Positions 7,705-57,248 are shown, counted from the stretch's first letter. The stretch: DNA of 64,000 nt from Candidatus Levybacteria bacterium RIFCSPLOWO2_12_FULL_41_12 (GCA_001784155.1 MFPL01000002.1:34012-98011), one strand, 5' to 3'. Program-made: numbers and translations. Notes: a model not told the origin generated them from the sequence alone.

Positions 7705-8490
7705 CTAGACAGAAAACTCAAGGATCATGGGGAGATGGTCTGAAACGATAATTTCCGGTACTTCAAATGTCTTCACCTTAATTCCTCCCGAAACTAAAAT
7801 ATAGTCTGCGTATCTCTCGCTGGTCTTTTTATAATGGTGAGTCCTTGTCCCCTTTATCGAAAACTCTTTGATGAGATTTTTCATATTCTCCTCAAGGATT
7901 TTCAAACTCTCAGTATTAGGACTAAGGTTAAAATCGCCGCAAATAATCTTTTCCCCACTAAAACTGTCTGAAATTTTCTTTATTGCTTTTGACTGAGCAA
8001 TTCTCTCGGGAGTATCCATTTTTTCACCTGGAATCCAATATCCGTGGACATTGCCTACCAGAATTTCCTTTTTACCTACTTTTATTCTCAGGCATTGAAT
8101 GTTTCTTGGTAAATCAAGTGCATTCTTAATCCCCTCCATCTTTATGCTCGGTTTATAGTCATATTTTCCGTGAATAAAAATAGCTTTTTCTGACGAAACC
8201 TTAATATTTTTCCTGACAAATGTGGCCTGACCAAAGGAAAGGGGAAAATTTACTCTTCTCTCGGTGTCATAACCTGTGAACATCGGGGCATAGTAACTAT
8301 TGTAGCCTTTTAGTAATTCCGATAAGTCAGCGTAGAGATCTGTCTTAAATCCGTTTCTGAATTCGCTTTTTGGAGAGTCGAAAACTTCCTGAAAACAGAA
8401 AATGTCGGCGTCGCGGCTTTGATCGTGGACAAACTCTAAGAGTGGCTTATGCATTTTCCCACCCCAAGTATTTAAGGAGACTAACTTCAT
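7705..8490 (-). CDS. Endonuclease/exonuclease/phosphatase (EEP) family protein
   Basis: N-terminal LNTWGG...DIFCFQEV and C-terminal SDHLP catalytic motifs. Confidence 0.8.
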   Translation of the reverse strand: MKLVSLNTWGGKMHKPLLEFVHDQSRDADIFCFQEVFDSPKSEFRNGFKTDLYADLSELLKGYNSYYAPMFTGYDTERRVNFPLSFGQATFVRKNIKVSSEKAIFIHGKYDYKPSIKMEGIKNALDLPRNIQCLRIKVGKKEILVGNVHGYWIPGEKMDTPERIAQSKAIKKISDSFSGEKIICGDFNLSPNTESLKILEENMKNLIKEFSIKGTRTHHYKKTSERYADYILVSGGIKVKTFEVPEIIVSDHLPMILEFSV

Positions 8491-8506: not shown

Positions 8507-9283
8507 CTAGAAGCTACTTTCTTTTAGGATTTTTTTTGTTCTTTTCACCAACTCGTCATGCACTCTTCCATTACTCGCTATAAAACCGTTTATAGGCTGA
8601 TCGTATCTTTGCTCATTTCCCAAGAGATCTGTAACTTTACCTCCTGCCTCTTCAACAACTATTTTTACCGCTGCGGCGTCCCAGGGGTTTACGTGCCTGT
8701 AAATTTCGGCTACAAACTCTCCCAATGCAACAAGCATCCCGCCATAAACACACGAATAAATTCTAGTCGTAAGAACTTTTCTCTTTCGAATTTCTTCTTC
8801 CATTCCTAAAAGCTTAAGACTTTCTATTCCCCCGTCAATTATGGTCCTTTCTGAAAAAGAAGAGGCCGAAGAGACTTTTACAGGTTTCCCATTTAATGTG
8901 GTTCCCTTATTTTTTTCGGCATACAAAAGCCTATCAACTATCGGATCGTAAATTACTCCCAGCACGGGACTTCCGTTTTTAACGAGAGCGAGAGAGAAAG
9001 CAAAGATGGGAAAGCCATGGGAAAAAGGGATCGTCCCGTCAATTGGATCACATACCCAAACGTATTCTGAATCCTTAAGACTATTTTCCTCTTCTCCCAA
9101 AATACTGTGCTCCGGATACTCCTTTCCGATAGCGTTTATTACCATTCTATTGACGAAGGTGTCTGTTACGGTAACTGGGGTTTTGTCTTTTTTCCACTCC
9201 TTCTTCATACCGAGAGAAAAATCTTTCCGCATTACTTCTCCTGCCTGCCTTGCCAAACCCATTGAAAAGTCTTTGTAGTTCAT
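8507..9283 (-). CDS. suhB: Inositol monophosphatase family protein (SuhB-like)
   Basis: IMPase motifs WVCDPIDGT and GG metal-binding region. The listed ORF start is a TTG. The ATG at 9283 sits 8 nt downstream of a TATAAT box. Confidence 0.85.
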   Translation of the reverse strand: MNYKDFSMGLARQAGEVMRKDFSLGMKKEWKKDKTPVTVTDTFVNRMVINAIGKEYPEHSILGEEENSLKDSEYVWVCDPIDGTIPFSHGFPIFAFSLALVKNGSPVLGVIYDPIVDRLLYAEKNKGTTLNGKPVKVSSASSFSERTIIDGGIESLKLLGMEEEIRKRKVLTTRIYSCVYGGMLVALGEFVAEIYRHVNPWDAAAVKIVVEEAGGKVTDLLGNEQRYDQPINGFIASNGRVHDELVKRTKKILKESSF

Positions 9284-9321
9284 TTGGGACAATTATAGCC
9301 CTTCGACTGCGCTCAGGACAA
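9284..9321 (-). promoter_or_regulatory. Predicted leaderless sigma70-type promoter of suhB (TTGTCC-18-TATAAT-8-ATG) embedded in the dispersed repeat
   Basis: On the minus strand the sequence reads TTGTCC tgagcgcagtcgaagggc TATAAT tgtcccaa ATG. Confidence 0.55.
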
Positions 9322-9329
9322 TAGCAGAA

Positions 9330-9605
9330 TTATTTTTCCCAGAACTTGATTTGGCCAATTACTAAAGCGCTGGTAAAAAGGGAGTAAATAAAAATATATG
9401 AAGAGTCGGTAAGAAAATACCCCAAGTCTACAAACGCTTTGTTTTCTGTCAGTCTTAACAAATAGCCTAACGAGAAAACAGCAATCGGCATAACTATAAT
9501 TGCCGAAAAACCAATATCTTTCTTAAATCTTCTGAAAAAGAACAATAAAGACAAGGAATACGTAAGAAAAACAACAGAAATTACGAGAACTTGATAGAAA
9601 AACAT
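9330..9605 (-). CDS. Small membrane protein, hypothetical
   Basis: 91 aa, three hydrophobic segments. Confidence 0.4.
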   Translation of the reverse strand: MFFYQVLVISVVFLTYSLSLLFFFRRFKKDIGFSAIIVMPIAVFSLGYLLRLTENKAFVDLGYFLTDSSYIFIYSLFTSALVIGQIKFWEK

Positions 9606-9671
9606 TCTCCGATTGTAGATTTTAAATATTTATATACAAGAGGCGAAATTCGGGGGCAATTATAGCAGAAG

Positions 9672-10007
9672 TTATTTTGCGGCGATCATGGAGATTTCTA
9701 TTTTTGCTCCTAGGGGAAGTTCTTTAACAGCGACAGTTTCTCTTGCTGGATATGGTTCTTTGAAATAGCTTGCATAGGTTTCATTAACTTTTTCGTAAAG
9801 CTCCATATCGGTTAGGTAAATGGTAGTTTTAACTACGTTTTCAAAATTCAATCCTTCCTTTTCAAGGATAGATTTGAGGTTTGTCATTACTTGATGCGTT
9901 TGTTCTTCTACAGTTCCTTCCAAAAGCTTTCCATCTTTGAGGTAAACCTGGCCGGATGTAAAAACGAGTCCGTTTTTTGAAACTGATGGCGAAAATGGTA
10001 ACGACAT
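9672..10007 (-). CDS. ridA: RidA/YjgF/TdcF-family reactive-intermediate deaminase
   Basis: Characteristic C-terminus LPLGAKIEISMIAAK and overall 111-aa length. Confidence 0.85.
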   Translation of the reverse strand: MSLPFSPSVSKNGLVFTSGQVYLKDGKLLEGTVEEQTHQVMTNLKSILEKEGLNFENVVKTTIYLTDMELYEKVNETYASYFKEPYPARETVAVKELPLGAKIEISMIAAK

Positions 10008-10032
10008 GAGGAAATTTTACTCCTTTTGCCTT

Positions 10033-10446
10033 CTATTTGCCAGAGTTAAGTCTTAAATATTTTTTGTGTCTTCTTATTAAAATAAGTAAAACAAATATAA
10101 TGTTTAATAAAACTATCGGAACGGAATAAAATAAGTTGTATATATCCCACTTTTGTCCCATCCCAAGCACAAAAACCTCTAAGCATGTAACAAAAGCCAT
10201 TACTGAAACTGGTATCCAGAAAAAGAGGAAAAAGATTATTCCCAGTCTTCTTAAAAATCCAAAAAAAGATTTTGTATGTTTTAGCGAATGGTAAACGATG
10301 AAAACAAGACACAAAATGGCAATAATGATGGAGGGAATTAAAAAGGGAGCCATCATTTTCTGCAATATAGAATCAGTAAAAGAATAAATCAGTATTACGA
10401 AACTAGAAGCCCACAAAAACGGAAAAGTTAAGATTGGCTTAATCAT
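10033..10446 (-). CDS. Membrane protein, hypothetical
   Basis: The listed ORF is longer. The ATG at 10446 (MIKPILTF...) lies 6 nt downstream of a TATAAT box, making it the likely start. Four hydrophobic helices. Confidence 0.5.
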   Translation of the reverse strand: MIKPILTFPFLWASSFVILIYSFTDSILQKMMAPFLIPSIIIAILCLVFIVYHSLKHTKSFFGFLRRLGIIFFLFFWIPVSVMAFVTCLEVFVLGMGQKWDIYNLFYSVPIVLLNIIFVLLILIRRHKKYLRLNSGK

Positions 10447-10550
10447 GGGGCAATTATAACCCTTCGACTGGGCTTCCTTCAAGTCTTCAGGGTAAACAGG
10501 TGTAAAGTGAACTATTGACAACAGTATATACAAAGTATATACTGTTAAAT

Positions 10551-10850
10551 ATGAATACTGCTGTAATAAACATTAAAACAAATCCCGAAGTTAAAGCTAA
10601 GGCTCAAAAAATTGCTGAAGAACTCGGCTTTAGTCTTAGTTCCCTAATAAATGGATATCTAAGAAGCCTTGTGAAGACAAAGGCTGTGCATTTCAATACA
10701 AGTGAGAAGCCGACAGACTATTTAATTCAAGCGCTCAAGGAATCAGAAAAAGATAGAAGAGCAGGAAGAATCGTTTCTTTTAAGAATCTTAAAGATGAGA
10801 TGGATTATCTTGACAAAATGATCGCGGATGATAAAAATAAAAAGAATTGA
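10551..10850 (+). CDS. RelB/DinJ-family antitoxin
   Basis: N-terminus MNTAVINIKTNPEVKAKAQKIAEELGFSLSSLINGYL is the DinJ/RelB ribbon-helix-helix type. Overlaps the downstream toxin gene. Putative promoter TTGACA-N15-TATATA-8-ATG. Confidence 0.7.
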   Translation: MNTAVINIKTNPEVKAKAQKIAEELGFSLSSLINGYLRSLVKTKAVHFNTSEKPTDYLIQALKESEKDRRAGRIVSFKNLKDEMDYLDKMIADDKNKKN

Positions 10851-11097
10851 ATATTCTAGAAAGTTTGATAAAGATTTAAAAAAGTCCCCAACCAAAATTA
10901 AAATAGCATTTAAAAAAAGACGGGAAATTTTCCAGCAAAATCAATTCCATCCGTTGCTTAACAACCATTTACTGACAGGAAACCTTAAGGGATACAGAAG
11001 CATAAATATTACAGGTGATTGGCGAGCAATTTATTCTGAAAGAAATGGTGTAATTACTTTTGAAATTTTAGGGACACATAGCATGCTTTATAAATAA
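10828..11097 (+). CDS. RelE/YafQ-family mRNA interferase toxin
   Basis: 89 aa. IEYSRKFDKDLKK...HPLLNNHLLTGNLKGYRSINITGDWRAIY matches the RelE/YafQ/ParE-superfamily core. Overlaps the antitoxin by 23 nt. Confidence 0.75.
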   Translation: MIKIKRIEYSRKFDKDLKKSPTKIKIAFKKRREIFQQNQFHPLLNNHLLTGNLKGYRSINITGDWRAIYSERNGVITFEILGTHSMLYK

Positions 11098-11222
11098 ACC
11101 ATGTCATTAATAAGAAATAAATCACTGAGTAAAAAGCGTAAAAGAGCAATAGCTTTTGCGGGGTGGCGAAGAAATATTGGAGCAAGAGAGAAAATTATTG
11201 CAAAAGAACTTAGAGATAAATT

Positions 11223-11330
11223 GGGGCAATTATAGCACCCTACTTCACTTCGGTTTCACTCAGTGTAAACCCTTCGACTAGGCTCAGGGCAAGCACCCCA
11301 CTTCACTTCGGTCTAACTCAGTGTAAACGC
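11223..11330. repeat. Intergenic repeat block: GGGGCAATTATAGC core, then two ~35 bp tandem copies of (C)ACCCYACTTCACTTCGGTYTMACTCAGTGTAAAC separated by a CCTTCGACTAGGCTCAGGGCAAGC unit
   Basis: Direct reading. Copy 1 at 11236-11270, copy 2 at 11294-11328 (31/35 identical). The spacer is a variant of the dispersed CCCTTCGACTG.GCTCAGG repeat. Confidence 0.6.
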
Positions 11331-11449
11331 TGTAGGCTTCCACCGACGCTAAAGCTTTGGCGGACAAGACGAGGGGCAAGGATAGAAATTCCAAAATCTA
11401 TTTTAGTAAATTTGATAATAGAAGTGTTTTGATGTAACATACTTCCCAA

Positions 11450-12211
11450 ATGAGTTCTGCAGTCTTTTTACTGGGGTTTATTATTCTTTTCTTGGTAATT
11501 CTTATTCCTTCGATAAAGCAGGTTAATCAATACGAAAGAGGTGTCCGCTTCCGATTTGGGAAATTTCGAGACGAGATGGCGCCCGGATGGAGAATTGTCT
11601 GGCCCGTTATAGAGGGTTGGCAAAGAATTGACATCAGAGTAAAGGCCGTAGACGTCCCGGATCAGGAGGCTATAACCCGAGATAATGTTTCGGCCCGCGT
11701 TAACGCTGTTATTTATTATCGTGTGGATCAGGCAAGGAAGGCAGTTTTGCAGGTGGAGGATTTTTACTATGCGGTCTCCCAACTCGCTCAAACAACCATG
11801 AGGAATGTGATAGGAGAAACTTCCCTTGATGATTTACTCTCCAAGCGTGAACAGGTCGCCAAAAAAATCCAGACAATTATCGACAAGGCCACTGATCCCT
11901 GGGGAGTCAAGGTAGAATCAGTTGAGCTAAAAGATATAATTCTCCCCGAGGAGATGAAAAGGGTTATCGCACGCCAGGCCGAGGCGGAAAGGGAACGCCG
12001 GGCAATTGTTATTCGGGCAGAAGGAGAAAAGGCTGCTGCTGAAAATATTGCTATCGCAGCGGGAAGACTTTCCAAAACCACAGGAGGTCTTCATGTTCGC
12101 ACGCTTCAGACTCTTTCAGAATTAGCATCCGATAAAAGCAACACTATAGTTTTCGTAACTCCCCTTGAAGTGCTCCGCGCTTTTGAAGGAATCATTAAGA
12201 AATTCAAATAA
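11450..12211 (+). CDS. SPFH/band-7 (stomatin/prohibitin-like) membrane protein
   Basis: N-terminal TM helix followed by an SPFH domain (IDIRVKAVDVPDQEAITRDNVSARVNAVIYYRV...), then a coiled-coil Ala/Glu-rich region. Confidence 0.85.
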   Translation: MSSAVFLLGFIILFLVILIPSIKQVNQYERGVRFRFGKFRDEMAPGWRIVWPVIEGWQRIDIRVKAVDVPDQEAITRDNVSARVNAVIYYRVDQARKAVLQVEDFYYAVSQLAQTTMRNVIGETSLDDLLSKREQVAKKIQTIIDKATDPWGVKVESVELKDIILPEEMKRVIARQAEAERERRAIVIRAEGEKAAAENIAIAAGRLSKTTGGLHVRTLQTLSELASDKSNTIVFVTPLEVLRAFEGIIKKFK

Positions 12212-12233
12212 AGGGGCAATTATAGCAGAAGAG

Positions 12234-12686
12234 TTATGCTGCGGTTCGCGGAGGAGGAAGTCGTAGCTTGCCTTTTTGATGAGCGGAAAGTAAATGTTTG
12301 GCACTTACCGATAAACTAGGAAGCGCTGCCATCTCGGCCCAAGAAAAATATTCTATATCGTCATGTATAGACTCTACAACGTGAGGAGTTCCAGACACAA
12401 TTTTTGAGTTATACCAAATGTATAGCTTAGGTTTATCTTCAAAGTAGTGAGCTCTTCCAGCTTCTTGTTCTACCTCAATATCTATTCCAGCTTCCTCACC
12501 GGCTTCCCGGGCGGCAGTTAAAGTAGGATCTTCACCAGGGTTTGATTTTCCGCCAATTATTTCCCACTGGTTTTTTTCGGGAGTATTTCGATGTATCAGA
12601 AGAACTCTGCCTAAATCGTCTTGGATAATTGAACCGGCCATTACTGTTACCGGCGATGGTTCAAATTCCTGCCCAACCAATGTCAT
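12234..12686 (-). CDS. NUDIX hydrolase
   Basis: Nudix box GGKSNPGEDPTLTAAREAGEEAGI. ATG at 12686 lies 8 nt downstream of TGTTATAAT (extended -10). The listed TTG start at 12695 is probably not used. Confidence 0.85.
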   Translation of the reverse strand: MTLVGQEFEPSPVTVMAGSIIQDDLGRVLLIHRNTPEKNQWEIIGGKSNPGEDPTLTAAREAGEEAGIDIEVEQEAGRAHYFEDKPKLYIWYNSKIVSGTPHVVESIHDDIEYFSWAEMAALPSLSVSAKHLLSAHQKGKLRLPPPRTAA

Positions 12687-12735
12687 TAAGGGCAATTATA
12701 ACACCCCACTCTGTTATAAACTACTAAGGGCAAAG
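12687..12735 (-). promoter_or_regulatory. Predicted leaderless promoter of the NUDIX gene (TGTTATAAT-8-ATG) carrying the GGGCAATTATAAC repeat core
   Basis: Minus strand reads gggGTGTTATAATtgcccttaATG. Confidence 0.5.
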
Positions 12736-12770
12736 GAAGTAGTATTTAACAAATACGCTAAAAAATTTCT

Positions 12771-12959
12771 TTACTTCTCTAGCTTATATGCGCTCCAGGC
12801 AAGAAAGCCCGCAGCTACTGCTCCGACAATGCTTAGCCACATTGGAACTACCCACCCCCCAACATTTACGCTCCAACCCAAAAACAACCTTAAAATATGG
12901 AAAGATCCAACTAACAAAAACAGAAGACATGTAACCTGATTGTAGGTTTTTTGCTTCAT
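12771..12959 (-). CDS. Small two-TM membrane protein
   Basis: 62 aa. Preceded by a strong SD (AGGAGGTGAGTAA-ATG). Confidence 0.5.
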   Translation of the reverse strand: MKQKTYNQVTCLLFLLVGSFHILRLFLGWSVNVGGWVVPMWLSIVGAVAAGFLAWSAYKLEK

Positions 12960-13006
12960 TTACTCACCTCCTTTCAGGATTTTCCTAAAGACCAACTAAT
13001 TTCGTT

Positions 13007-13126
13007 CTATCTATATTTCTTGCTAGTTTTTAAGGCTAGCATTTTTCGTTTTATCTCAAGCCTTTTCTTGGTTTTGTGCGGATGAGATCTCTTTTCGTTC
13101 CCAAGTCCTGTATCTCGTTTTGCCAT
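13007..13126 (-). CDS. Small basic protein (39 aa), possible bL28-like ribosomal protein fragment
   Basis: Not in the ORF track (<60 aa). MAKRDTGLGNEKRSHPHKTKKRLEIKRKMLALKTSKKYR. The GN..SH...KTK(K/R)R(L/F) block resembles the bL28 core GNNVSHSxxKTKRRF. Preceded by GTATAAT-7-ATG. Confidence 0.3.
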   Translation of the reverse strand: MAKRDTGLGNEKRSHPHKTKKRLEIKRKMLALKTSKKYR

Positions 13127-13170
13127 ATATCAAATTATACACTATTAATAATTCCTAAATCTCTAGGCGC

Positions 13171-14379
13171 TTACTCGACGAAGGTTAGCGCAGTACCTCT
13201 TTTACCGGCGCGCCCGGTTCTTCCAATTCTATGAATATAGTCTCTATATGACGCAGGCTGGTCATAATTTATGACATGAGTTACGTCCTCTATGTCAAGT
13301 CCGCGGGAGGCCACATCCGTTGCGATAAGAACCTGAAGCCTATTTTCCTTAAAGCCGTCAAGCGCACGCTGACGCTGATTTTGTGATTTATTTCCATGAA
13401 TTGCGGCTGTTTTAAAACCGCGATCAAGAAGTGTACGCGACAATTTTTCCATTCCCCATTTAGTTCTTCCGAAAATTAATACTTTATCAAATCCCGGTTT
13501 AATTAAGAGGTCATGGAGTACGTCTATTTTTTGCCTGCCCGTTAATCGCACAATATCCTGCTCTATATTCTCTGCTGTATCTTGCTGTTTTACAGAAACA
13601 GTCACAGGATTTGTTACAAAGCTTCGAAGGATTTCCTGTGTTTTTTCATCTACTGTCGCTGAGAAAAATAGTGACTGGCGCACTTTTGGAAGTAGCGAGA
13701 TGAGATACTTTATGTCTTTTATAAATCCTATGTCTACCATCCTATCTACCTCATCAAGAACTACATTCTGGAATTGCATTAGATTAAGCTCTCTTCTTTC
13801 AATAAGATCCTTAAGTCTCCCCGGAGTACCGATAACAAAATGCGGTTTATGTCGAAGAGCATAAGTCTGTCTCCTAATATTTATTCCTCCGACTGTAGTT
13901 ACAGACTCAAGATCCATGCCTTTTGCAAAAAGACGGAATTCTTCTCCAATTTGTACTGCAAGCTCTCGGGTAGGAACAACTATTAAAACTCTCTGGTTTC
14001 GATCCAAAAATGATTTATTAACTAGAGTTATAAGAAAAGCCGCGGTCTTGCCTGTTCCTGTATTTGCAATACCAATAAGGTCTCGTCCTAAAAGTATTTC
14101 CGGGATTGCCTTTTCCTGGATTGCGGTGGGAGTAGTATATCCGTGGTCAATAATGTTACGCGAAAGCTTCTCAACGATTTTATAATCTGAAAATTTCCCA
14201 TTCGTCACTTCGCTCCTCAGGGCAAGCGCGTCCGTATCTTGCTCTTTTGCGCTTTTGACAAAAAATCTAGGGTCAAGCTTCTTCTCAAATCTGGGTGCTC
14301 TTCCACGAAAATTATTCGTGCGAGCACGATAATTACCGCCACCATTGTGACTATGATTTCGACCATTGCCTTTGTACAT
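13171..14379 (-). CDS. DEAD-box ATP-dependent RNA helicase with RGG/Asn-rich N-terminal tail
   Basis: Q-motif, Walker A ANTGTGKTAAF, DEVD (DEAD variant), SAT, and HRIGRTGRAG motif VI. Confidence 0.9.
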   Translation of the reverse strand: MYKGNGRNHSHNGGGNYRARTNNFRGRAPRFEKKLDPRFFVKSAKEQDTDALALRSEVTNGKFSDYKIVEKLSRNIIDHGYTTPTAIQEKAIPEILLGRDLIGIANTGTGKTAAFLITLVNKSFLDRNQRVLIVVPTRELAVQIGEEFRLFAKGMDLESVTTVGGINIRRQTYALRHKPHFVIGTPGRLKDLIERRELNLMQFQNVVLDEVDRMVDIGFIKDIKYLISLLPKVRQSLFFSATVDEKTQEILRSFVTNPVTVSVKQQDTAENIEQDIVRLTGRQKIDVLHDLLIKPGFDKVLIFGRTKWGMEKLSRTLLDRGFKTAAIHGNKSQNQRQRALDGFKENRLQVLIATDVASRGLDIEDVTHVINYDQPASYRDYIHRIGRTGRAGKRGTALTFVE

Positions 14380-14382
14380 ATT

Positions 14383-14640
14383 TTACCTTTCTACTTGTGG
14401 TTTGGCTTCTTTTACGGCGATCTGACGTCCATTGAGATCTGACCCGTTAAGTTTGTCCATTGCAGTTTTGGCTAATTCTTCTGTCTCCATTTCTACAAAA
14501 CCAAAACCTTTACCTTGTCCTGTATTTCTATCAACTATAACCTTTGCTGATAAAACTTTTCCAATTGTTGCAAAAAGTTCTTCCAGCTGCGCGTCTGTAG
14601 TTGCGTAATCAAGACTTCCTATAAATAATTTATTTGTCAT
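14383..14640 (-). CDS. RRM-type RNA-binding protein
   Basis: RNP-2 LFIGSL and RNP-1 KGFGFVEM. Strong SD AGGAGG 9 nt upstream. Lies 3 nt upstream of the DEAD-box helicase, so probably an operon. Confidence 0.85.
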   Translation of the reverse strand: MTNKLFIGSLDYATTDAQLEELFATIGKVLSAKVIVDRNTGQGKGFGFVEMETEELAKTAMDKLNGSDLNGRQIAVKEAKPQVER

Positions 14641-14858
14641 TTATTCGTTCCTCCTTTCTCTTAAAGATTAATATTGTTATGCAAATAGCTCTGCTCAAAT
14701 GTGAAGTGGTTTAATTGGGATGAAGATACAAACATGTGGAAAAATTGAGGTATCTTTTGTCTTTTAAAAAACTAAATCAAAATGTAAGCAGATTTATTCG
14801 CGAACAATTTACTACATAAGCATTATAACACAACTCAAGTCTTAATTCAAACTATAGG

Positions 14859-15245
14859 TTAACTATAAGCCGCTGTGATAAGAGAACCGTGCCTAGAAAC
14901 AAACTCCCGCGTAGGGCTGGATAGTAAGAGCTTCTGAAGCTCTTTGAGAGTGAAAAATGCGAGCGTTTGTCCTTCTGCACGCTGAATATGGTTTACGTTG
15001 TCGTCGGTAAGGCAGGCGTGATAGCAAGATCTAGATACGAATTCAACATTTTCAACTCTTATTCCCATCTCTTTCTCTATAATTTTTCCAAGCGCATCCT
15101 CAAAAGACTCTTTCGTTGCTTTCGTGCCTCCTATAAAACTCCACGCGTGCTTTTCTTCATCGATTGCGCTATTCTGCCTGTACATAAGAAGCGCTTTGTT
15201 CTTATAGGTAAGGAGGATCAGACTTGAGGAAAATTTATCATCCAT
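14859..15245 (-). CDS. Degenerate NUDIX-fold protein
   Basis: Nudix-box-like GGTKATKESFEDALGKIIEKEMGI with Lys in place of the catalytic Arg-Glu pattern (REx2EE becomes KIIEKE). Confidence 0.45.
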   Translation of the reverse strand: MDDKFSSSLILLTYKNKALLMYRQNSAIDEEKHAWSFIGGTKATKESFEDALGKIIEKEMGIRVENVEFVSRSCYHACLTDDNVNHIQRAEGQTLAFFTLKELQKLLLSSPTREFVSRHGSLITAAYS

Positions 15246-15416
15246 TAATTACATTATAGACCCATTTGGAGAGAAAAGGTTGAGCAAAATCAGGCTAAAC
15301 GTAACAAAGTCGAAGTGCTGAGCATTCCGCTCCAGACCCATTATATCACTATAGCGGTGTCTCAATTTTGTAGCTGGACAACCTATAATTTTTGGTGTAA
15401 TACTTTATATAGACAC

Positions 15417-16505
15417 ATGCTTGTAGAGCAAAGAGAAATAGCTCGAATGCAAGTCCAAATGGAAAACAATGAAGGTATTAGTCCTGAAATATTGCCTGCT
15501 GAGAAAGTTCGTGTATTAATCCCCTACGATCCCGAGGTTGCACATTATAATGCCGCAGTAATAAGATCAAGAAAAAATCCTAGCGATTTACTTATTTTAC
15601 TGCGAGAAGTATCACGGGCCACTGTAAAATCCGGTATTCCCGATAAAGGAAATTTACTTATCTATCGATCAACGCCTGAGAAAGTTGAGAAAATTGGTCA
15701 ATTAGATTTATCCGACCCTACTGTAATCGGTTGGGAAGATGTTCGGGCTTTTAGCTCTGATGAAACCGTTGTAGACGACCAAGGTATTGAGAGCGAAAGA
15801 GTTTTATTAGGCCTGACAGCAATTAGAGCTAGTGACAATAAGCCTGTCGCCGCAACGGTAAGAGGAGAAGTTATTGATGGTAATTTTTTTGTAGAGCAAG
15901 GATCTTTACTTGTTTATCTTGACGATGAAGGGAAAAACGTAACGCCGATTTCTCTTACAGAATCTCTATTTAGAAGAGAGGGGTCTAGTCATTCTTTGGA
16001 AGTAGTTGAACATAGCAAAGATGAGAATGGCCGGAATAAGCTACGTGTTAAAAAAACTATCCAATTTCCCCAAAAACCGTGGTGTGAATGGCGGATTGGA
16101 ACACAAGCTCAAATTCTTCCTGGAGGAATACTCCCAATTCATGGGGTAAACAGATTTAGTTTGGGAATTGATTCCAAAACAGGCGAAGAAGTTTATGGTT
16201 ATACATATAGTATGGGTCTTGCTCAATTAGATGAGGATCTAAATGTTGTTAAAATTACCGATACTCCATTGTTTACCCGGGAATCATTCAGAAACATACT
16301 CCCCACGGGAACAGAACTGAATACTAATAAGAACGTTATTTACTGTTGTGGATATTCGGTTGAGGGAGATATGGTTAAGTTTGTTATCAATATAGGGGAT
16401 CTTATGACGGTTGAGGTTTCCAAAAGCTTGTTTGAGTTAAGAAGAGCATTAGACAAATCTTCTCCTATTGTCTCAAAAGAAATGATTGATAAGGCAGCAG
16501 CCTAG
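15417..16505 (+). CDS. Hypothetical protein (362 aa from ATG 15417) with no recognisable domain
   Basis: Long clean ORF. The listed start at 15315 lies inside the upstream repeat. ATG 15417 is 6 nt downstream of TTATAT. Confidence 0.55.
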   Translation: MLVEQREIARMQVQMENNEGISPEILPAEKVRVLIPYDPEVAHYNAAVIRSRKNPSDLLILLREVSRATVKSGIPDKGNLLIYRSTPEKVEKIGQLDLSDPTVIGWEDVRAFSSDETVVDDQGIESERVLLGLTAIRASDNKPVAATVRGEVIDGNFFVEQGSLLVYLDDEGKNVTPISLTESLFRREGSSHSLEVVEHSKDENGRNKLRVKKTIQFPQKPWCEWRIGTQAQILPGGILPIHGVNRFSLGIDSKTGEEVYGYTYSMGLAQLDEDLNVVKITDTPLFTRESFRNILPTGTELNTNKNVIYCCGYSVEGDMVKFVINIGDLMTVEVSKSLFELRRALDKSSPIVSKEMIDKAAA

Positions 16506-16686
16506 GATTTATATTAATTCCTAAAAATATAGGGATTACGGTCTATGTTGACATAGTCCAATTTCATATATTGTTCAGATACCGGACGGTATCTGGCCGC
16601 GGTACATTCTCACTTGCAAAGCAAGGTATCGAATGGTACCTTACTGAGCAGGCCGGTCAAGACCCCTTCAATCATTATAGCTTTAA

Positions 16687-17583
16687 CTATTGATAAATTA
16701 AATAAAGGCCTAGGAACATTAGGAAAATAGCTAAAACTTTAACCCCTAAAGCGCTTTTGCTTAATTCCTCTTTAAGTATTTTAGGAAACCAGATTGAAAG
16801 AAAAACAGTAAAAATAAGAACAAACGCACTTTGAAATCCTCTAGTTACGCTAATTAACGTAACAGGTCCAGTTATTAGAGCCCAATTTATGCTTAACGAT
16901 GCTCCGGCTACGAAAAGCATAGCCATTATCAGAAGTATCCAACCCACAGGTTTTAAATTTGAAAAATTATCAACTAATCTATTTTTAAAATTAGGTATTA
17001 AAAGAAGTAGCGGTGTGGGAAGAAATTGGCCAAAAATTAAATAGACTGTTAAGTCCCAAAATGGATAAGAAACGTATAAAGGTTTTAAAATTACAATTTG
17101 AATTGCATAGATTAAACTGGATAAAACCATCAACCAAAAAGCATTCCTTAATTTAAATACACCCTCTATTCTCTTGAGAGAAATTAAAAAACCACCTATT
17201 AAGATCAATATAAAAGCAAGGTATTGAGGCCTGGTTAAAACTTCTCCCAAAAATAAAAAGGAGAGTATCAGGACAAAGGGCGGAGTCAGCTGAAATAAAG
17301 GTATTACTCGAGATATTTCTTCTTTGGAGATTGCTTGGTAAAAAGCAAAAACAGCGATTATTTGAAACGAGCCGGCAAACACAGCAAGTGCCACTGGGAC
17401 GGGACCAATCCAGCTTAAACCATTGAATAAGATAATGATTAGGGCGAGAAGTAACGAAGAAATTCCAGCTACAAAAGTTAATATAAGCGGGTTTTTGAGA
17501 TGCTTTCCTATTAATAGTTTATCTACAATATTATCCGCCGCCCATAAGGCTCGAGACAAAAGAGAAAAAATTACCCACTCCAT
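16687..17583 (-). CDS. EamA/DMT-family transporter
   Basis: 298 aa, ~10 TM helices with a two-fold EamA repeat organisation. Confidence 0.75.
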   Translation of the reverse strand: MEWVIFSLLSRALWAADNIVDKLLIGKHLKNPLILTFVAGISSLLLALIIILFNGLSWIGPVPVALAVFAGSFQIIAVFAFYQAISKEEISRVIPLFQLTPPFVLILSFLFLGEVLTRPQYLAFILILIGGFLISLKRIEGVFKLRNAFWLMVLSSLIYAIQIVILKPLYVSYPFWDLTVYLIFGQFLPTPLLLLIPNFKNRLVDNFSNLKPVGWILLIMAMLFVAGASLSINWALITGPVTLISVTRGFQSAFVLIFTVFLSIWFPKILKEELSKSALGVKVLAIFLMFLGLYLIYQ

Positions 17584-17593
17584 ATCGTTGAAA

Positions 17594-17878
17594 TTATAGC
17601 TCTTTTAAGAATCTTAAATCTCCCAAAATTAATGCCTCCTTTTTAGCACGAGACCATTGCTTCAATTGCCATTCACGTTTCATTGCTTTCGAACGGGTTT
17701 TAAAAGATTCCGAGTAAACAAGCTTAAAGGAATTGTAATAACGAGTATACTTTGCAGATTTTGAAGTTTTATTTTTGTGTTCAAGAATTCTTTTCTCTAA
17801 ATTATTTGTTTGTCCGATGTAAAGAGTATTTGATGAGGTGCGAAGAATATAAACGTAAAAGACTATCTTTCGATTCAT
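17594..17878 (-). CDS. GIY-YIG nuclease-domain protein (small stand-alone)
   Basis: FYVYIL...YIGQTNNLEKRILEHK is the GIY-YIG core. Confidence 0.8.
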   Translation of the reverse strand: MNRKIVFYVYILRTSSNTLYIGQTNNLEKRILEHKNKTSKSAKYTRYYNSFKLVYSESFKTRSKAMKREWQLKQWSRAKKEALILGDLRFLKEL

Positions 17879-17943
17879 TTCATGGTTCGACTTTGCTCAC
17901 CATTGTAATTCGCTCAAGACCATCTTCCTTGTTCATGGCTATA

Positions 17944-17985
17944 GCCCTGAGCGCAGTCGAAGGGCTGAGCATACCGCTCTAGACC
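17944..17985. repeat. Dispersed-repeat copy GCCCTGAGCGCAGTCGAAGGGCTGAGCATACCGCTCTAGACC
   Basis: Contains the reverse complement of the CCCTTCGACTGCGCTCAGGGC unit seen at 9299-9317. Its second half matches 15309-15338 at 27/30 positions. Confidence 0.6.
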
Positions 17986-18062
17986 AGTTTAGACCTTATA
18001 ACTGATTGTATCACCAGGAGGCTAAACGAGACAAATGAGACAGTATAAAAAGAGCATAAACC

Positions 18063-29593: not shown

Positions 29594-30997
29594 ATGGAAA
29601 GCATAATTAACAAAATCCCCAAGGTCGTTTTGTCAGCTTACAATACTCTTAAAGACAAAGGCTATAAGGTTTACCTCGTGGGAGGCGGCGTAAGAAATCT
29701 ACTCATGGATATTCCGGTTAAAGACTGGGATCTCTCGACAAATGCTACCCCGGACGAAATTACGACACTTTTCAAAGATTCATACTACAACAATCTCTTT
29801 GGAACGGTGGGTCTGCCCGTAGATATAAACGGCACGAAATCAGTTATAGAAATTACTACCTTCAGAAGCGAGGGTGAATATAAAGACAGGAGACGACCCG
29901 AAAGCGTTGAGTGGGGAAAGACAATTGAAGACGATCTTTCTAGACGTGACTTTACGATAAACGCGATTGCCCTTCGCTTTGCTCCCTTCGACGGTTCTCA
30001 GGACAAGCAGGATAAACCCTCTGAAGTTGAATTCGCTGATCCGTTTAATGGTAGGGTGGATATAAAAAACAAATTGATAAAAGCAGTCGGCGATCCAAAG
30101 AAGAGGTTTAAAGAAGATGCTCTGCGCCTTATGAGGGCAGTAAGAATTGCAACACAGCTCTCCTTTACAATAGACGATGCCACTTGGAAAGAAATTCAAA
30201 ATGATGCGAAGCTGATAAGAGATATCTCGGGAGAAAGAATAAGAGATGAACTCTTAAAGATTCTTGGATCCGAAAACTCATACGAGGGAACAATAATGCT
30301 TAAAGATTCAGGGCTACTTGAAGAAATAATTCCTGAGCTCTTGGAGGGAGAAGGAATTTCGCAAGCAAGACCAGGTAGGCATCACACCGAAGACGTACTC
30401 ACTCATAATCTTTTGTCTCTTAAACATTCTCCCACAAAGAATTCTATCGTTCGCCTAGCCGCTCTTCTTCATGATGTCGGGAAACCAAAAGCGCTAGGGA
30501 AAGATGAAGAAGGACTCGTTACTTTTTACAACCACGAAGTCGCAGGAGCAAAAATTGTTAAAGAAATTGCACAGCGCCTTAGGCTCTCCAAGAAGGAAAC
30601 AGAAAGAATTGTGACTTTGGTCCGCTGGCATATGTTTACGGTTGACGAGAAAATAACAGATGCAGCAGTACGCAGATTTATAAGAAGAATTGGCGTTGAA
30701 AATGTTACCGACATGATGGATCTTCGAATTGGTGATCGACTTGGCGGGGGAACCCAGACGGCAGAATCTTGGCGACTAAAACTATTTAAAAAAAGGGTGG
30801 AAAAAGAACTATCACCCAAACCGTTTTCTATCGAGGACATGGCGATTGACGGAAATGATGTTATGAAAGAACTTGGAATAAAACCGGGTCGTAGGATAGG
30901 AGAAATTCTACAAGCTCTTTTTGAAGAAGTCGACGAGGATCTATCGAAAAACACTAAAGAGCACTTACTCCAAAGAATAAAAGATTTGGGGAAATAG
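29594..30997 (+). CDS. cca: CCA-adding tRNA nucleotidyltransferase with C-terminal HD domain
   Basis: Start at ATG 29594 (MESIINK...). Head domain GGGVRNLLMDIPVKDWDL. HD motif HDVGKP. The listed 29342 start would overlap recJ and is rejected. Confidence 0.9.
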   Translation: MESIINKIPKVVLSAYNTLKDKGYKVYLVGGGVRNLLMDIPVKDWDLSTNATPDEITTLFKDSYYNNLFGTVGLPVDINGTKSVIEITTFRSEGEYKDRRRPESVEWGKTIEDDLSRRDFTINAIALRFAPFDGSQDKQDKPSEVEFADPFNGRVDIKNKLIKAVGDPKKRFKEDALRLMRAVRIATQLSFTIDDATWKEIQNDAKLIRDISGERIRDELLKILGSENSYEGTIMLKDSGLLEEIIPELLEGEGISQARPGRHHTEDVLTHNLLSLKHSPTKNSIVRLAALLHDVGKPKALGKDEEGLVTFYNHEVAGAKIVKEIAQRLRLSKKETERIVTLVRWHMFTVDEKITDAAVRRFIRRIGVENVTDMMDLRIGDRLGGGTQTAESWRLKLFKKRVEKELSPKPFSIEDMAIDGNDVMKELGIKPGRRIGEILQALFEEVDEDLSKNTKEHLLQRIKDLGK

Positions 30998-54050: not shown

Positions 54051-54126
54051 AGTTTGACTTTGTCCTTCGACAGTGAGCTCAGGACTGTCGAACTGCTCAC
54101 TATGACCCTGAGTCTAATCGAATGGG

Positions 54127-54637: not shown

Positions 54638-55648
54638 TCAACCTTGAAGCAATTTTATTGCTTGGCCTGTTTTGTAACTTTTCGCGTGTTTTAAATAACC
54701 AAGATATGACTGGATAGTCTGATTTAGCGAAAAATCAGAGATTCTCCCTGTTTTGTATTCATCAAGCTTATCTGATATCTTTCTAAACATCCTTTTCTTT
54801 GTTTTTGTTCTTGGCAAAACGTAGTGGGGAAGTATGACGTAACCTAAAAAATCAACTCCCCATGAAAGTCTTCTCATAATAATCTTGCCTGGATTAAGTC
54901 TCAGCTTAAGATTTTCTTCCAAGAAGACTGGTATACTAGTATACCAGTCTAATAATCTACTCCTATTGGATTCTAAAATTAAAAAGTCATCAGCGTAACG
55001 CAGGTAATATTTCACTCTTAGACTCTGCTTTATAAATTGGTCCAGTTCGTTTAAGTAAATATTTGCAAAAATCTGACTTGTCAGATTGCCAAGAGGAATT
55101 CCTTTCCCTCTTCCTTGTTCCACGCTAAAACTTTGAATAACTTCTTTTAAAAGCCAGAGAATATCTTCATCTTCTATTCTCTTTTTTAGAAGTTCGAACA
55201 AAATCTTATGATCAACATTTGCAAAGAATTTTTTAATATCAAGTTTTAGAGCAAAGCAGTTTCTTGTATAATTCTTGCTCACTTTTCTCGCAAATAACTC
55301 AAGCCTTTCAACTCCTTTATGCGTTCCTTTATCTAAACGACAAGAATATGAATCATAAATAAAACTTTTATCAAAGACAGAATATAAATATTTATATAAA
55401 AGGTGATGTAAAACCCTATCCGAAACACAGGCTTTATGGATGTGCCGTCTTTTCGGATCGTTAACGAAGAATTCCTCGTATTTTCCATGTTGGTAAGTTT
55501 TGTTTTTCAAAGACAAGTGCAGAGAGAACAAATTGTCTTCCAAATTCCGCTCGAAAACTTGTAAATCCAATCTCTTCTTCTTTCCTTTTTTAAATTCAGA
55601 AAAGGCTTGAAAAAGATTTTCTATTTGTATAAGATCTTCATAGTTCAT
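54638..55648 (-). CDS. DGR-type reverse transcriptase
   Basis: Start at ATG 55648 (MNYEDLIQ...). Motifs DSYSCRLDKGTHKG (DGR-like SxxxRxxKGTH), GIPLGNLTSQIFANIYLNELD (LGNLTSQ replaces the usual QG...SP, a DGR hallmark), and YADDFLIL (YxDD). The listed 373-aa ORF start is an artefact of reading through the upstream (CA)n tract. Confidence 0.9.
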   Translation of the reverse strand: MNYEDLIQIENLFQAFSEFKKGKKKRLDLQVFERNLEDNLFSLHLSLKNKTYQHGKYEEFFVNDPKRRHIHKACVSDRVLHHLLYKYLYSVFDKSFIYDSYSCRLDKGTHKGVERLELFARKVSKNYTRNCFALKLDIKKFFANVDHKILFELLKKRIEDEDILWLLKEVIQSFSVEQGRGKGIPLGNLTSQIFANIYLNELDQFIKQSLRVKYYLRYADDFLILESNRSRLLDWYTSIPVFLEENLKLRLNPGKIIMRRLSWGVDFLGYVILPHYVLPRTKTKKRMFRKISDKLDEYKTGRISDFSLNQTIQSYLGYLKHAKSYKTGQAIKLLQG

Positions 55649-55672
55649 ATGAGTAACATCAATAAACCTGTT

Positions 55673-55698
55673 CACACACACACACATACACACACACC
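55673..55698. repeat. Dinucleotide microsatellite (CA)7-TA-(CA)5, 25 nt upstream of the RT start
   Basis: Direct reading: cacacacacacacatacacacacacc. It lies between TR and RT, flanked by the GC-rich inverted repeat GCCCGCC...GGCGGGC at 55711-55747. Confidence 0.8.
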
Positions 55699-55737
55699 GA
55701 TAGTAATTTAGCCCGCCTGCCAGCACCTGACCGCAGG

Positions 55738-56088
55738 GATGGCGGGCAGGATATCCCAATCTTTACCAAGCTCTACGAATTTTATAAAACGCTTAGCTCA
55801 ATTATTCCATCTTTCCCTAAGACAAAACGCTACACGCTAGGTCAAAAGTTGGATAACACAACCTTGGACATACTCGAATTCTTGTTTGCAATACCGTTAA
55901 GCAGTAATAAGCTGATTATCCTTCAAAAAATAAGCGTAAAAGTCGATTTATTAAAAATTCTAATCCGTCTCTCTAAAGACACCCAGATAATTAATAACAA
56001 AGACTGCTTAGAGCTTGAAACAAAACTTTCTGAAATAGGCAAAATGCTTGGAGGATGGATCAGAGCCTCCAAGCAAAATACCACTTAA
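55738..56088 (+). CDS. Avd-like (accessory variability determinant, four-helix-bundle) protein encoded antisense to the DGR, with no canonical in-frame start
   Basis: C-terminus LSEIGKMLGGWIRASKQ closely parallels BPP-1 Avd's AEVGRILGSWIARVNRK. Upstream block IPSFPKTKRYTLGQKL resembles the PF05635-family N-terminal region. The open frame extends to 55738 with no ATG/GTG. The nearest ATG (55739) is in a different frame, and the track's TTG at 55849 would truncate the fold. Confidence 0.55.
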   Translation, partial: DGGQDIPIFTKLYEFYKTLSSIIPSFPKTKRYTLGQKLDNTTLDILEFLFAIPLSSNKLIILQKISVKVDLLKILIRLSKDTQIINNKDCLELETKLSEIGKMLGGWIRASKQNTT

Positions 56089-56104
56089 AAAACTTCTTCT
56101 ACTA

Positions 56105-56220
56105 GAAACTATCAAGCGAACCGCATGAACATTGTCATTGCCGTTATCAGGCTTAAAGTCATTGACATTCAAACCGTTATCGGGATTCGCATTGCCGACA
56201 ATCGCAGCATTAGAACCCAC
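56105..56220 (-). repeat. DGR template repeat (TR)
   Basis: Core 56113-56217 matches VR 56547-56651 at 85/105 positions. TR coding (minus) strand is adenine-rich with AAC codons (translates GSNAAIVGNANPDNGLNVNDFKPDNGNDNVHAVRLIV). Shared 3' IMH-like end GCGGTTCGCTTG. Confidence 0.88.
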
Positions 56221-56519
56221 ATTTTGTGCATATCCCTTCGTTAACAGAACCTCACCAAAGATTTCTGTAAAGATCTCTTTTGAATTTTATCCGTCTCGCC
56301 AAAAACGGCGGAGCGAAAAAAGATATACGTAGTGTCTAGTAAATTTTTCTTTAAGTACTCTCCCTCACTATGTATAGTGAGGGACTCTGACTATTGAAAG
56401 ATCCTAGAAATAGGCGGTACGGCTTAAATCAAACCGGACTCATTGCGCTATTGCGAATAATTGTAGCAAAAAAATCGGAGAACCAAAATACAAGAAGTCC
56501 AAAATTACCAAGAGGACAA

Positions 56520-57248
56520 CTACTTATTTCCGTGGTTAGGCACTACCAAGCGAACCGCAAGAACACCGCCACCGCCGCCACCAGGCCCAAAGCCACGGAC
56601 ATCCAAACCGTCATCGGGATGCGCACGGCCGACAACCGCAGCATTAGAACCGGATTTAGTCGTTGGATTTTTTGTTCTTCCGTACCGATAGCCGTAATCT
56701 GGTCCAAATAACCATTCTCCTGTTTGATCTAAATAGTCAAAAGTAATTCCTGTAAGAGTCGATGCCTCGTTTGGAATTCTAACATCTACTCCAGATAATC
56801 CTAATCTTTCTCTTAAAGTCTCTCCGTCTCTACTGACCATCCTCTCCTGCGTAGCTAAATCTTTACCGCCTGTGCCGGGAATAAAGAATCTGTCCGGATC
56901 GGGATAAATTGCTACTTCAGCAAGACTTGAAGGGACATTAAGAAGTCCGTCTTCCGCATTAGCAACAAAATAAAACGAGGGTTTTTCTTTTTGTCTTTGG
57001 GCTTCTCTTTGTGAGGGAATAGTCTGATCGAGGGGCTTTAAAATAATTGCCCCGTCTTTTGATAAAGCGCGCTTTTCTACGGCAGTAAACTTATCGGCTT
57101 TCCCAACCTGTTCACGTCTTGGAAGAGGGACATCTTTCCCTCTAGCTTTATGCATTGCAGCAATTACATCCGCTCTTTCTGCGTCGCGGGGATCGTTTGT
57201 TACTCTAAGTTTTCTTTCGACCCATTCCATTCCCATATGAACGAACAA
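56520..57248 (-). CDS. DGR target protein (variable C-terminal ligand-binding domain, probable C-type-lectin/FGE-like fold)
   Basis: C-terminus ...GSNAAVVGRAHPDDGLDVRGFGPGGGGGGVLAVRLVVPNHGNK is the VR-encoded region. It ends with the xVRLVx-like segment typical of CLec-fold DGR targets. No obvious signal peptide. Confidence 0.8.
   Translation of the reverse strand: MFVHMGMEWVERKLRVTNDPRDAERADVIAAMHKARGKDVPLPRREQVGKADKFTAVEKRALSKDGAIILKPLDQTIPSQREAQRQKEKPSFYFVANAEDGLLNVPSSLAEVAIYPDPDRFFIPGTGGKDLATQERMVSRDGETLRERLGLSGVDVRIPNEASTLTGITFDYLDQTGEWLFGPDYGYRYGRTKNPTTKSGSNAAVVGRAHPDDGLDVRGFGPGGGGGGVLAVRLVVPNHGNK
56540..56655 (-). repeat. DGR variable repeat (VR) at the 3' end of the target gene
   Basis: Of the 20 mismatches to TR, 16 are A-to-G, 3 are A-to-C and 1 is A-to-T on the coding strand. 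Six TR adenines are unchanged. No non-adenine position differs within the 105-bp core. Confidence 0.88.

Follow-up and report, generated by a model that had tools for sequence, protein, structure and literature searches.

The window analysed here is a 64,000-nt stretch of DNA (MFPL01000002.1:34012-98011; G+C content, 40%) from Candidatus Levybacteria bacterium RIFCSPLOWO2_12_FULL_41_12, a Rifle aquifer member of the Microgenomates in the candidate phyla radiation (CPR), near-identical contigs of which were found in many samples. Between positions 9286 and 12704, a row of small genes is punctuated by copies of a 16-nt motif containing a TATAAT box, hereafter the A core. The first gene behind a copy is suhB (inositol monophosphatase; 8507-9283, minus strand), followed by minus-strand cassettes for a 91-aa membrane protein (9330-9605) and for a 137-aa membrane protein together with RidA (Ribonuc_L-PSP in Pfam; 9672-10446). 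Beyond these lie two inverted, plus-strand cassettes, one encoding a RelB/YafQ toxin-antitoxin pair with its own promoter (TTGACA-17-TATACT) and a probable palindromic operator (10515-11097), the other an SPFH/Band 7 protein (11450-12211; Pfam), and finally a minus-strand cassette for a NUDIX hydrolase (12234-12686; Pfam). Each segment between neighbouring A copies consists of one gene or one operon.

Read on the minus strand, the core consensus is (C/G)(T/G)GC-TATAAT-TGCCCC, also written (C/G)(T/G)GCTATAATTGCCCC; the copies in the window vary as (C/G)(T/G)G(C/T)-TATAAT-TG(C/T)CC(C/T), with a perfect TATAAT in every copy. A search of the 64-kb window for GGGCAATTATAGC with up to two mismatches gave 8 matches against 1.2 expected, and 8 was reached in no shuffle. 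The strict minus-strand form, TATAATTG[CT]CC[CT], matched six times (at 9286, 9653, 10447, 11223, 12213, and 12689), on one strand only and within 3.4 kb. It was absent from the other 60 kb, where its only near relative was AATAATTGCCCC, at 57042. The probability that six copies fall within 5.3% of the window under uniform placement is roughly 3e-6.

Copy 1 (9286-9301, minus strand like the other five; GGGC-TATAAT-TGTCCC) precedes suhB, with 8 nt between TATAAT and the ATG, and a promoter scan assigned it TTGTCC at an 18-nt spacer. Copy 2 (9653-9668; CTGC-TATAAT-TGCCCC) lies 7 nt past the RidA stop codon, and the 91-aa gene starts 47 nt further on, with a TACAAT of its own 6 nt before its ATG. 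Copy 3 (10447-10462; GGGT-TATAAT-TGCCCC; TTGAAG, 18-nt spacer in the scan) stands exactly 6 nt from the ATG of the 137-aa gene. Copy 4 (11223-11238; GTGC-TATAAT-TGCCCC) is an orphan with the inverted RelB/YafQ module downstream, where sister strains carry other cassettes. Copy 5 (12213-12228), also an orphan, occupies the 22 nt that separate the stop codon of NUDIX from that of the inverted SPFH gene, a junction that is also present in sister strain L229. The TATAAT of copy 6 (12689-12704; GTGT-TATAAT-TGCCCT) is followed after 8 nt by the ATG of the NUDIX gene, and this is the site of the unit polymorphism and assembly gap described below. Copies 4 and 5 face the 3' ends of plus-strand genes. 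Upstream of TATAAT, three types of sequence were distinguished: a short repeat unit ending in GTCGAAGGG(C/T) (9286 and 10447), a unit ending in GT(A/G)GGGTG(C/T) (11223 and 12689), and a pyrimidine-rich TAACT(C)TTCTGC in which the gene before it has its stop codon (9653 and 12213).

The original prediction, made from the sequence of the window, had listed eight sites here, and all eight are present. It had placed the core 6-8 nt before the ATG of suhB, the 137-aa gene, and the NUDIX gene, as is the case, and its view of the core as promoter-associated was supported. The 19-mer that it took for a promoter spacer serves in that position at suhB and, in degenerate form, at the membrane gene; it does not at the NUDIX gene. 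An extended common sequence at the copies that sit at gene 3' ends (9653 and 12213) was likewise found; it covers ~32 nt, CCGCA(A/G)(A/C)ATAACT(C)TTCTGCTATAATTGCCCC, and contains the RidA and NUDIX stops. The reservation that the motif is not simply a promoter proved sound, as three of the six copies have no gene start behind them. The idea of a single family dispersed over 9 kb had to be abandoned: the A core is confined to the 3.4-kb array, and the two other sequences included in that family, B and C, represent a separate unit of ~22 nt.

Rearrangements at the core in sister strains and related genomes

The original prediction had also proposed a recombinogenic module and a comparison with related genomes; presence/absence polymorphism was indeed seen in three of them, and it took the form of added units or of other genes behind the same joints. 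In L003, a strain from another sample with 99.6-100% identity to the window, the NUDIX copy contains 66 extra nt, corresponding to three 22-nt units, between GGGGTG and TATAAT, and the scaffold L001 has an assembly gap exactly at this site. Synteny between L003 and the window stops ~30 nt to the right of the C copy at 15309. Wherever L229 and the window have sequence in common, the two are 96-98% identical, and their flanks are the same, with Exo_endo_phos on one side and SPFH, the A copy at 12213, and NUDIX on the other. Between these flanks, L229 has no suhB, no RidA with the 137-aa gene, and no RelB/YafQ; it carries instead an F420-type oxidoreductase, a serine hydrolase, a deaminase, a 116-aa gene, and two diverged copies of the 91-aa gene, with an A copy in front of each. 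The unit and A copy that precede suhB in the window lie directly on the ATG of Exo_endo_phos in L229. A simple TATAAT-to-TATAAT deletion was considered for the absence of suhB and rejected, since L229 keeps TGCCCC and the first codons of the next gene differ. In a third strain, L176 (95% identical over the 5' part of SPFH), units, an A copy, and a PNPOx gene stand in place of the window's units, A copy at 11223, and inverted toxin-antitoxin module. In relatives with 80% suhB identity, downstream synteny is kept, and the array and both motifs are absent.

Breakpoints were compared over 181 copies with their 150-nt flanks. The downstream side was common and the upstream side unrelated in 23 copy pairs, representing at least six independent modules, and the converse was found in 4 pairs; a 108-aa gene, for example, occurred behind the core in three different contexts. 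In every such pair, similarity started or stopped at the 16-mer. The bases to the left of TATAAT vary with the upstream neighbour, and in the one informative pair (window 9286 and L229) a T/C variant at +8 travels with the downstream gene, so that any crossover would fall inside TATAATTG. Cassettes of the window also recur elsewhere: RidA stands alone behind an A copy in L205, and the RelB/YafQ module is found, 80% identical, in another array (L170). The identical YafQ protein occurred only in the same strain context, with no new arrangement.

A scan of the genome collection for a unit followed by an A core gave nine places, five of them in Levybacteria, Gottesmanbacteria, and an unclassified Patescibacteria genome, where stretches of 2-8 kb hold 4-8 cores, mostly with an ATG directly after the core. 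The metagenomes were scanned with TGCTATAATTGCCCCATG, which yielded 104 stretches, 25 of them with 2-8 copies. Adjacent cores in the multi-copy loci lay on the same strand in 83 of 83 pairs, at a median spacing of 590 nt, and by simple ORF (open reading frame) calls, which were used for all fetched loci, 94 internal ORFs were co-oriented with the core and 30 inverted. The 98 unique array proteins fell into 82 clusters with a median length of 143 aa. Pfam assignments of the cargo included PNPOx, glyoxalase, GNAT, LigT, PIN, HicB, CopG, small kinases, methyltransferases, hydrolases, and isochorismatase, and 78 unrelated protein families were found directly behind the core across Levybacteria, Gottesmanbacteria, and other Patescibacteria. 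The chromosomal position of the arrays differs between genomes. In one 574-kb contig (Ga0209726_10000004; L206 3676-7787), a seven-copy array splits rpsJ (S10) from rplC (L3), which are normally neighbours, and EF-Tu lies just upstream of the array. A 14-mer scan of viral contigs returned 120 stretches with a single match each, which we regard as noise, the background being one unit in 1.08 Mb.

The conservation profile of the core was drawn from 54 non-redundant copies that had not been selected by either scan pattern. Past the 11 bases fixed by the pattern that found them (TATAATTG[CT]CC), conservation reached only positions -4 to -1 and +11 and then fell to about zero on both sides. Behind 44 unselected copies, we found 10 genes whose ATG abuts the core, 14 co-oriented genes with a leader, 14 inverted genes, and 6 cases with nothing callable. 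The stop codon of the inverted genes was often just 0-5 nt off the core, and that of the preceding gene lay at a median of 16 nt before TATAAT. Taken together, these data indicate that, in several Microgenomates genomes, exchangeable genes form co-oriented arrays joined at the 16-mer, a property that cannot be seen from one window.

Promoter-like features of the core

A -10-like hexamer was present 4-10 nt before the ATG in 27 of the 73 genes of the window, compared with 4.5% of all ATG triplets, and a Shine-Dalgarno-like motif in only 8 of 73; this genome appears to rely mainly on leaderless translation. The A core is not a generic promoter of this kind, because the other leaderless-type genes of the window use unrelated spacers and no copy of the core lies in the remaining 60 kb. 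The stretch from the -10 box to the ATG differs in each of these 24 genes, and only the six A copies share TG(C/T)CC(C/T).

The core has the features of a sigma-70-type -10 region, in that TATAAT is perfect everywhere and an extended -10 TG and a -35 box compensate for each other. Among copies without the extended -10 TG, 15 of 19 have a TTG 17-19 nt upstream, supplied by a unit, compared with 8 of 143 among copies with TG. The promoter scan flagged both unit-plus-A copies of the window, with 10 of 12 matches. An ATG stands 6-8 nt past the -10 box in three of the six copies in the window and in 10 of the 44 unselected copies elsewhere, the others preceding a leader or an inverted gene. In the single-hit long loci, most of which exceed the arrays in G+C, a long ORF starts at the ATG behind the 18-mer form of the core in ~30 of 38 cases. 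Such single hits would be expected if the 18-mer works as a leaderless promoter and arises by chance among many promoters of this type.

From these sequence features, we infer that the core fires as a leaderless promoter. It would be a self-contained promoter for leaderless mRNAs, with the -10 box usually preceded by the extended -10 TG. The 6-nt pyrimidine-rich stretch after TATAAT would leave the A of the ATG as the sole purine at the usual start distance, so that, from general knowledge of start-site choice, the transcript would be forced to start with AUG. Promoters of leaderless mRNAs in Actinobacteria and Deinococcus have their -10 box 6-8 nt before the ATG and no Shine-Dalgarno sequence, and the A copies that an ATG follows at this distance resemble them. 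Unlike these promoters, the A core has a conserved spacer and occurs as identical copies in arrays; to our knowledge, the spacer is not conserved in Actinobacteria and Deinococcus, and the promoters there are not repeated as identical copies in arrays.

Upstream units and neighbouring features

B and C are variants of one separate unit of ~22-29 nt that is more widely spread than the A core and has the consensus TTGYC-CTGAGC-N3-GTCGAAGGG. In the window, B (CCCTTCGACTGCGCTCAGG, up to three mismatches) gave four matches against 0.01 expected (9299, 11270, 17946 on the minus strand, and 29984), C gave two against 0 expected (15309 and 17956), and the relaxed form CTGAGC-N3-GTCGAAGGG gave six against 0.86. 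On the minus strand of the array, the unit GCTATTGTC-CTGAGC-GCA-GTCGAAGGG (9299-9325) provides copy 1 with its -35 box and spacer, and degenerate units (10460-10500) lie upstream of copy 3. Three tandem units (11237-11331), two of 29-35 nt ending in GAAGTGAAGTRGGGTGC and one CTGAGCCTAGTCGAAGGG, are followed by a related GC-rich module (CCTTGCCCCTCGTC...; 11332-11392) with a counterpart before the A core in many other arrays. On the plus strand, a unit tail and a C-type unit (CTGAGC-ATT-CCGCTCCAGACC) lie at 15300-15338, and GCTATAGCC with a B unit and a C unit at 17938-17985, the latter forming an inverted pair with 9297-9325 (27 of 29 nt).

Four unit sites were found beyond those listed in the original prediction. 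Two units, CTTGAGC-GAA-TTACAATG and GTGAGC-AAA-GTCGAACC (17885-17925, minus strand), abut the start codon of a gene for a 94-aa GIY-YIG nuclease (PF01541; 17594-17878, minus strand), a candidate partner of the unit family. A unit-like CTGAGGAGCGAAGTGACG (14208-14230, minus strand) lies within the N-terminal tail of a DEAD-box helicase and reads ALALRSEVTNG. The unit CCCTTCGACGGTTCTCAGGACAA (29984-30006, plus strand) lies in frame inside the gene for a CCA-adding enzyme (29594-30997, plus strand), where it encodes ..APFDGSQDKQ..; the PolyA_pol head domain of this enzyme matched over 137 residues compared with 125 profile positions, suggesting an insertion. Finally, three units in mixed orientation (54054-54125) stand directly upstream of the ftsE start codon (54050), with no A core there. 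A 24-nt unit was present in one and absent from the other of two copies of a 207-aa module, and the flanks of unit insertions showed TG microhomology only.

Units pile up in tandem directly upstream of the -10 box, their number expands and contracts between strains, and they give a -35-like TTGYCC at 18 nt where the TG is missing. The GIY-YIG nuclease may spread the units found just upstream of its genes, and the two could form a repeat-nuclease partnership. In GIY-YIG homologues (P0126-P0234) with over-long N-terminal calls, unit-encoded peptides (SEVEG, SKVEG, VVEP, and LSLSK..VVEG) precede the conserved start, so that the association between units and GIY-YIG genes holds across many Microgenomates. 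In Bacteroidia bacterium Bin_39 (L139 7222-7285), two units form a perfect 24-nt palindrome, GTCACCCTGAGCGTAGTCGAAGGG-TTATAATTG-CCCTTCGACTACGCTCAGGGTGAC, which shows the unit family to exist outside the CPR as well, in hairpin form.

The pneumococcal BOX elements, the enterobacterial BIME/REP (bacterial interspersed mosaic elements/repetitive extragenic palindromes), and the mycobacterial MIRU (mycobacterial interspersed repetitive units) are modular intergenic repeats of variable unit number, and REP elements, which flank genes for RAYT (REP-associated tyrosine transposases), are the standard example of a repeat that has a nuclease of its own. The B/C units resemble BOX, BIME, and MIRU in being short, modular, tandem, strain-variable in number, and located at gene boundaries, and differ from them in also lying in frame inside genes and in offering no evidence of transposition. 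As in the REP-RAYT pair, one unit copy adjoins a small nuclease gene; unlike REPs, the units of the window are not hairpin-forming, and the partner would be GIY-YIG rather than HUH or Y1. A test for REP/BIME and RAYT gave no hairpin signal and no RAYT-like gene in the window, the neighbouring gene being GIY-YIG. The idea of C as a conserved RNA hairpin (GAGC-loop-GCUC) was discarded because the stem is broken in L003. The inverted pair 9297-9325/17938-17966 was rejected as the ends of an 8.6-kb element, as ordinary genes lie inside and the sister strains break elsewhere.

Several further features of the array and the window were observed. The near-consensus promoter of RelB/YafQ (10515-10550) overlaps the palindrome ACAGTATATAC-aaa-GTATATACTGT, probably an autoregulatory operator, and the ATG follows 7 nt past the -10 box. 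After YafQ, a putative 44-aa, very basic ORF (MSLIRNKSLSKKRKR...; 11101-11235), called in some assemblies only, has its last codons and stop inside an A core (..GQL*). The Exo_endo_phos gene beside the array is called as 192 aa in L003 and L248, compared with 261 aa in the window (L003 8099-8677 and window 7705-8490), which may reflect a frameshift or a start difference. A search of the whole window against Rfam 15 at the gathering score gave two tRNAs only. A diversity-generating retroelement lies at 54638-57236, with a reverse transcriptase gene (RVT_1; 54638-55687, minus strand) and a template repeat (56103-56217) that pairs with a variable repeat (56537-56651) in the C-terminal end of a minus-strand ORF (56520-57236); on the minus strand, 21 of the 23 mismatches between the repeats are adenines in the template copy.

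Explanations for the cassette arrays

On the evidence above, we think that the A core probably has two roles, as a leaderless promoter that is portable and as the joint at which a cassette array recombines. Identical cores punctuate chromosomal arrays of small accessory modules in Levybacteria and related Microgenomates, in one direction per array; the ATG of a module would usually abut the core, and modules with their own promoters, mostly toxin-antitoxin pairs, are sometimes inverted. The arrays rearrange at the cores, with modules gained, lost, and swapped between strains. Modules may be moved by recombination through the short identical core copies rather than by a dedicated integrase, possibly helped by homology of neighbouring modules after DNA uptake.

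Several points weigh against this interpretation. An identity of 16 nt is short for RecA-type recombination. An ATG within 3 nt is missing in three of the six copies in the window and in about two thirds of the unselected copies elsewhere, and a promoter role cannot account for orphan copies staying identical. The inverted genes that often end 0-5 nt from the core point to a precise boundary, not to a loose promoter region, and the conserved C at -1 and the TTG past TATAAT need homogenisation or a further sequence-specific factor. The metagenome pattern required ...CCCCATG, and the copies it found are therefore biased to the leaderless form. The counts for this organism cover the 64-kb window, and other arrays or lone copies may lie outside it.

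The strongest rival is an integron-like, site-specific system, in which the 16-mer, perhaps with a few flanking bases, is the site of a recombinase encoded elsewhere that inserts and excises modules at the core, the built-in promoter then expressing each captured module. The strict co-orientation of adjacent cores (83 of 83 pairs), the sharp edges of the conserved block on both sides, and the breakpoints at the core in all comparisons speak for it, as do the persistence of intact orphan copies, the start of modules, inverted ones included, 0-5 nt past the core, and the upstream and +8 T/C variants that would put the crossover inside TATAATTG. The cargo, too, is like that of chromosomal integrons. 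Most integron cassettes have no promoter and depend on Pc for their transcription; their toxin-antitoxin modules have promoters of their own and are often inverted. The A arrays likewise resemble integrons and CALINs (clusters of attC sites lacking integron-integrases) in that co-oriented repeats separate short, unrelated, mostly co-oriented, strain-variable accessory genes, in the inverted toxin-antitoxin modules with own promoters, in cargo such as GNAT, glyoxalase, NUDIX, and isochorismatase, and in differences of gene content among close strains, whose breakpoints lie at the repeat.

The repeat itself fits this rival poorly. Integron attC sites are imperfect inverted repeats of 57-141 nt that fold as single strands and carry RYYYAAC and GTTRRRY cores. 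The A repeat, unlike this structured attC, is a 16-nt conserved sequence that is unfolded and promoter-bearing, without two inverted binding arms; GTTATAA misfits GTTRRRY, and the gene-to-gene spacers, often 24-45 nt, are too short for attC. The six joints showed no excess of attC-like or IS200-type hairpins on either strand (z, -0.9 to +0.15). Unlike integrons, the arrays also stand at different chromosomal sites in different genomes, and some boundaries have no core, as in L170, where a 207-aa gene is followed directly by an inverted toxin-antitoxin module. Neither the 64-kb window nor the immediate surroundings of any array yielded a tyrosine or serine recombinase: phmmer searches of the ORFs of the window and array loci with Xer and Hin queries (as a test for intI or another recombinase) gave matches in L131 and L165 only, neither beside an array, and Pfam gave none on the window proteins and none among the 25 cargo families listed. 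For a dif-like site of the Xer (pdif) type, 28-nt XerC-spacer-XerD sites in alternating orientation around the modules are expected; the A copies are all direct, and the core lacks two 11-nt arms. For a miniature inverted-repeat transposable element, terminal inverted repeats and a target-site duplication around 50-500 nt are expected; the 16-nt block lacks inverted ends, and the 29-nt inverted pair encloses 8.6 kb of ordinary genes. A likeness between ATAACTTC and a loxP arm, and another between GGTTCGA and the T-arm of a tRNA, were judged coincidental, the second arm and the tRNA fold, respectively, being absent. On balance, we consider an integron-like system of this kind unlikely.

A bolder proposal, which is tentative and to our mind somewhat doubtful, is that the arrays represent a new integron-analogous cassette system in Microgenomates, built differently from integrons, in which the 16-nt site is itself the leaderless promoter and a module is expressed as soon as it is captured. 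Modules would be accepted in either orientation, and the recombinase would be either unlinked or a new type of enzyme. One candidate for the machinery would be the GIY-YIG nuclease together with the units, whose tandem copies end precisely where the site begins on its upstream side.

It is improbable that the core is instead a regulon signal, with the bases beyond the -10 box (GC before and TTGCCCC after) acting as a repressor or activator operator or as the site of a sigma variant, the modules being switched together and the copies kept alike through selection for binding and not through mobility. In its favour, conservation exceeds 90% at positions that a -10 box does not need, GCTATAATTGC is nearly palindromic (at 8 of its 11 positions), and the core is restricted to one functional gene class. 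It leaves unexplained, however, the orphan copies facing the 3' ends of inverted genes, the coincidence of the strain breakpoints with the core, and a co-orientation that is independent of gene orientation, and no regulator gene is linked to the arrays. Convergence, in which each gene independently evolved the same optimal leaderless promoter and the strain differences are ordinary indels among short genes, draws on the finding that genuine gene starts follow the 18-mer in loci whose G+C far exceeds that of the arrays, so that the architecture works broadly, but is very improbable, given that the 24 other leaderless-type genes of the window use unrelated spacers, that this route cannot produce six (elsewhere up to eight) identical 16-mers in the space of a few kb, that orphan copies exist, and that the breakpoints fall at the core.

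The nearest published concept to the A core is that of putative mobile promoters, near-identical promoters that precede non-homologous genes in the same genome and in different ones (Matus-Garcia et al. 2012, PMC3488235). The A core shares with them its position upstream of non-homologous genes in several genomes and differs in being only 16 nt long, in its dense co-oriented arrays, strain breakpoints, and leaderless genes, and in the retention of orphans. In the literature, we found no account of the motif, of integrons or cassette arrays in Patescibacteria, or of a link between repeats and GIY-YIG genes.

The genomes of CPR bacteria are tiny and hold few recognisable mobile elements. An array of exchangeable single-gene modules joined by a minimal promoter, as in the explanation that we favour, would answer how these bacteria acquire and express accessory genes. 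With the 16-nt core as a marker, the flexible gene pool of these bacteria could be located directly in metagenomes, and the core would also be a natural, very short, and portable expression signal. The pairing of units with GIY-YIG genes, if true, would be a new kind of repeat-nuclease partnership, and if a dedicated enzyme does act at the core, the arrays would represent a second, independent invention of the integron principle.

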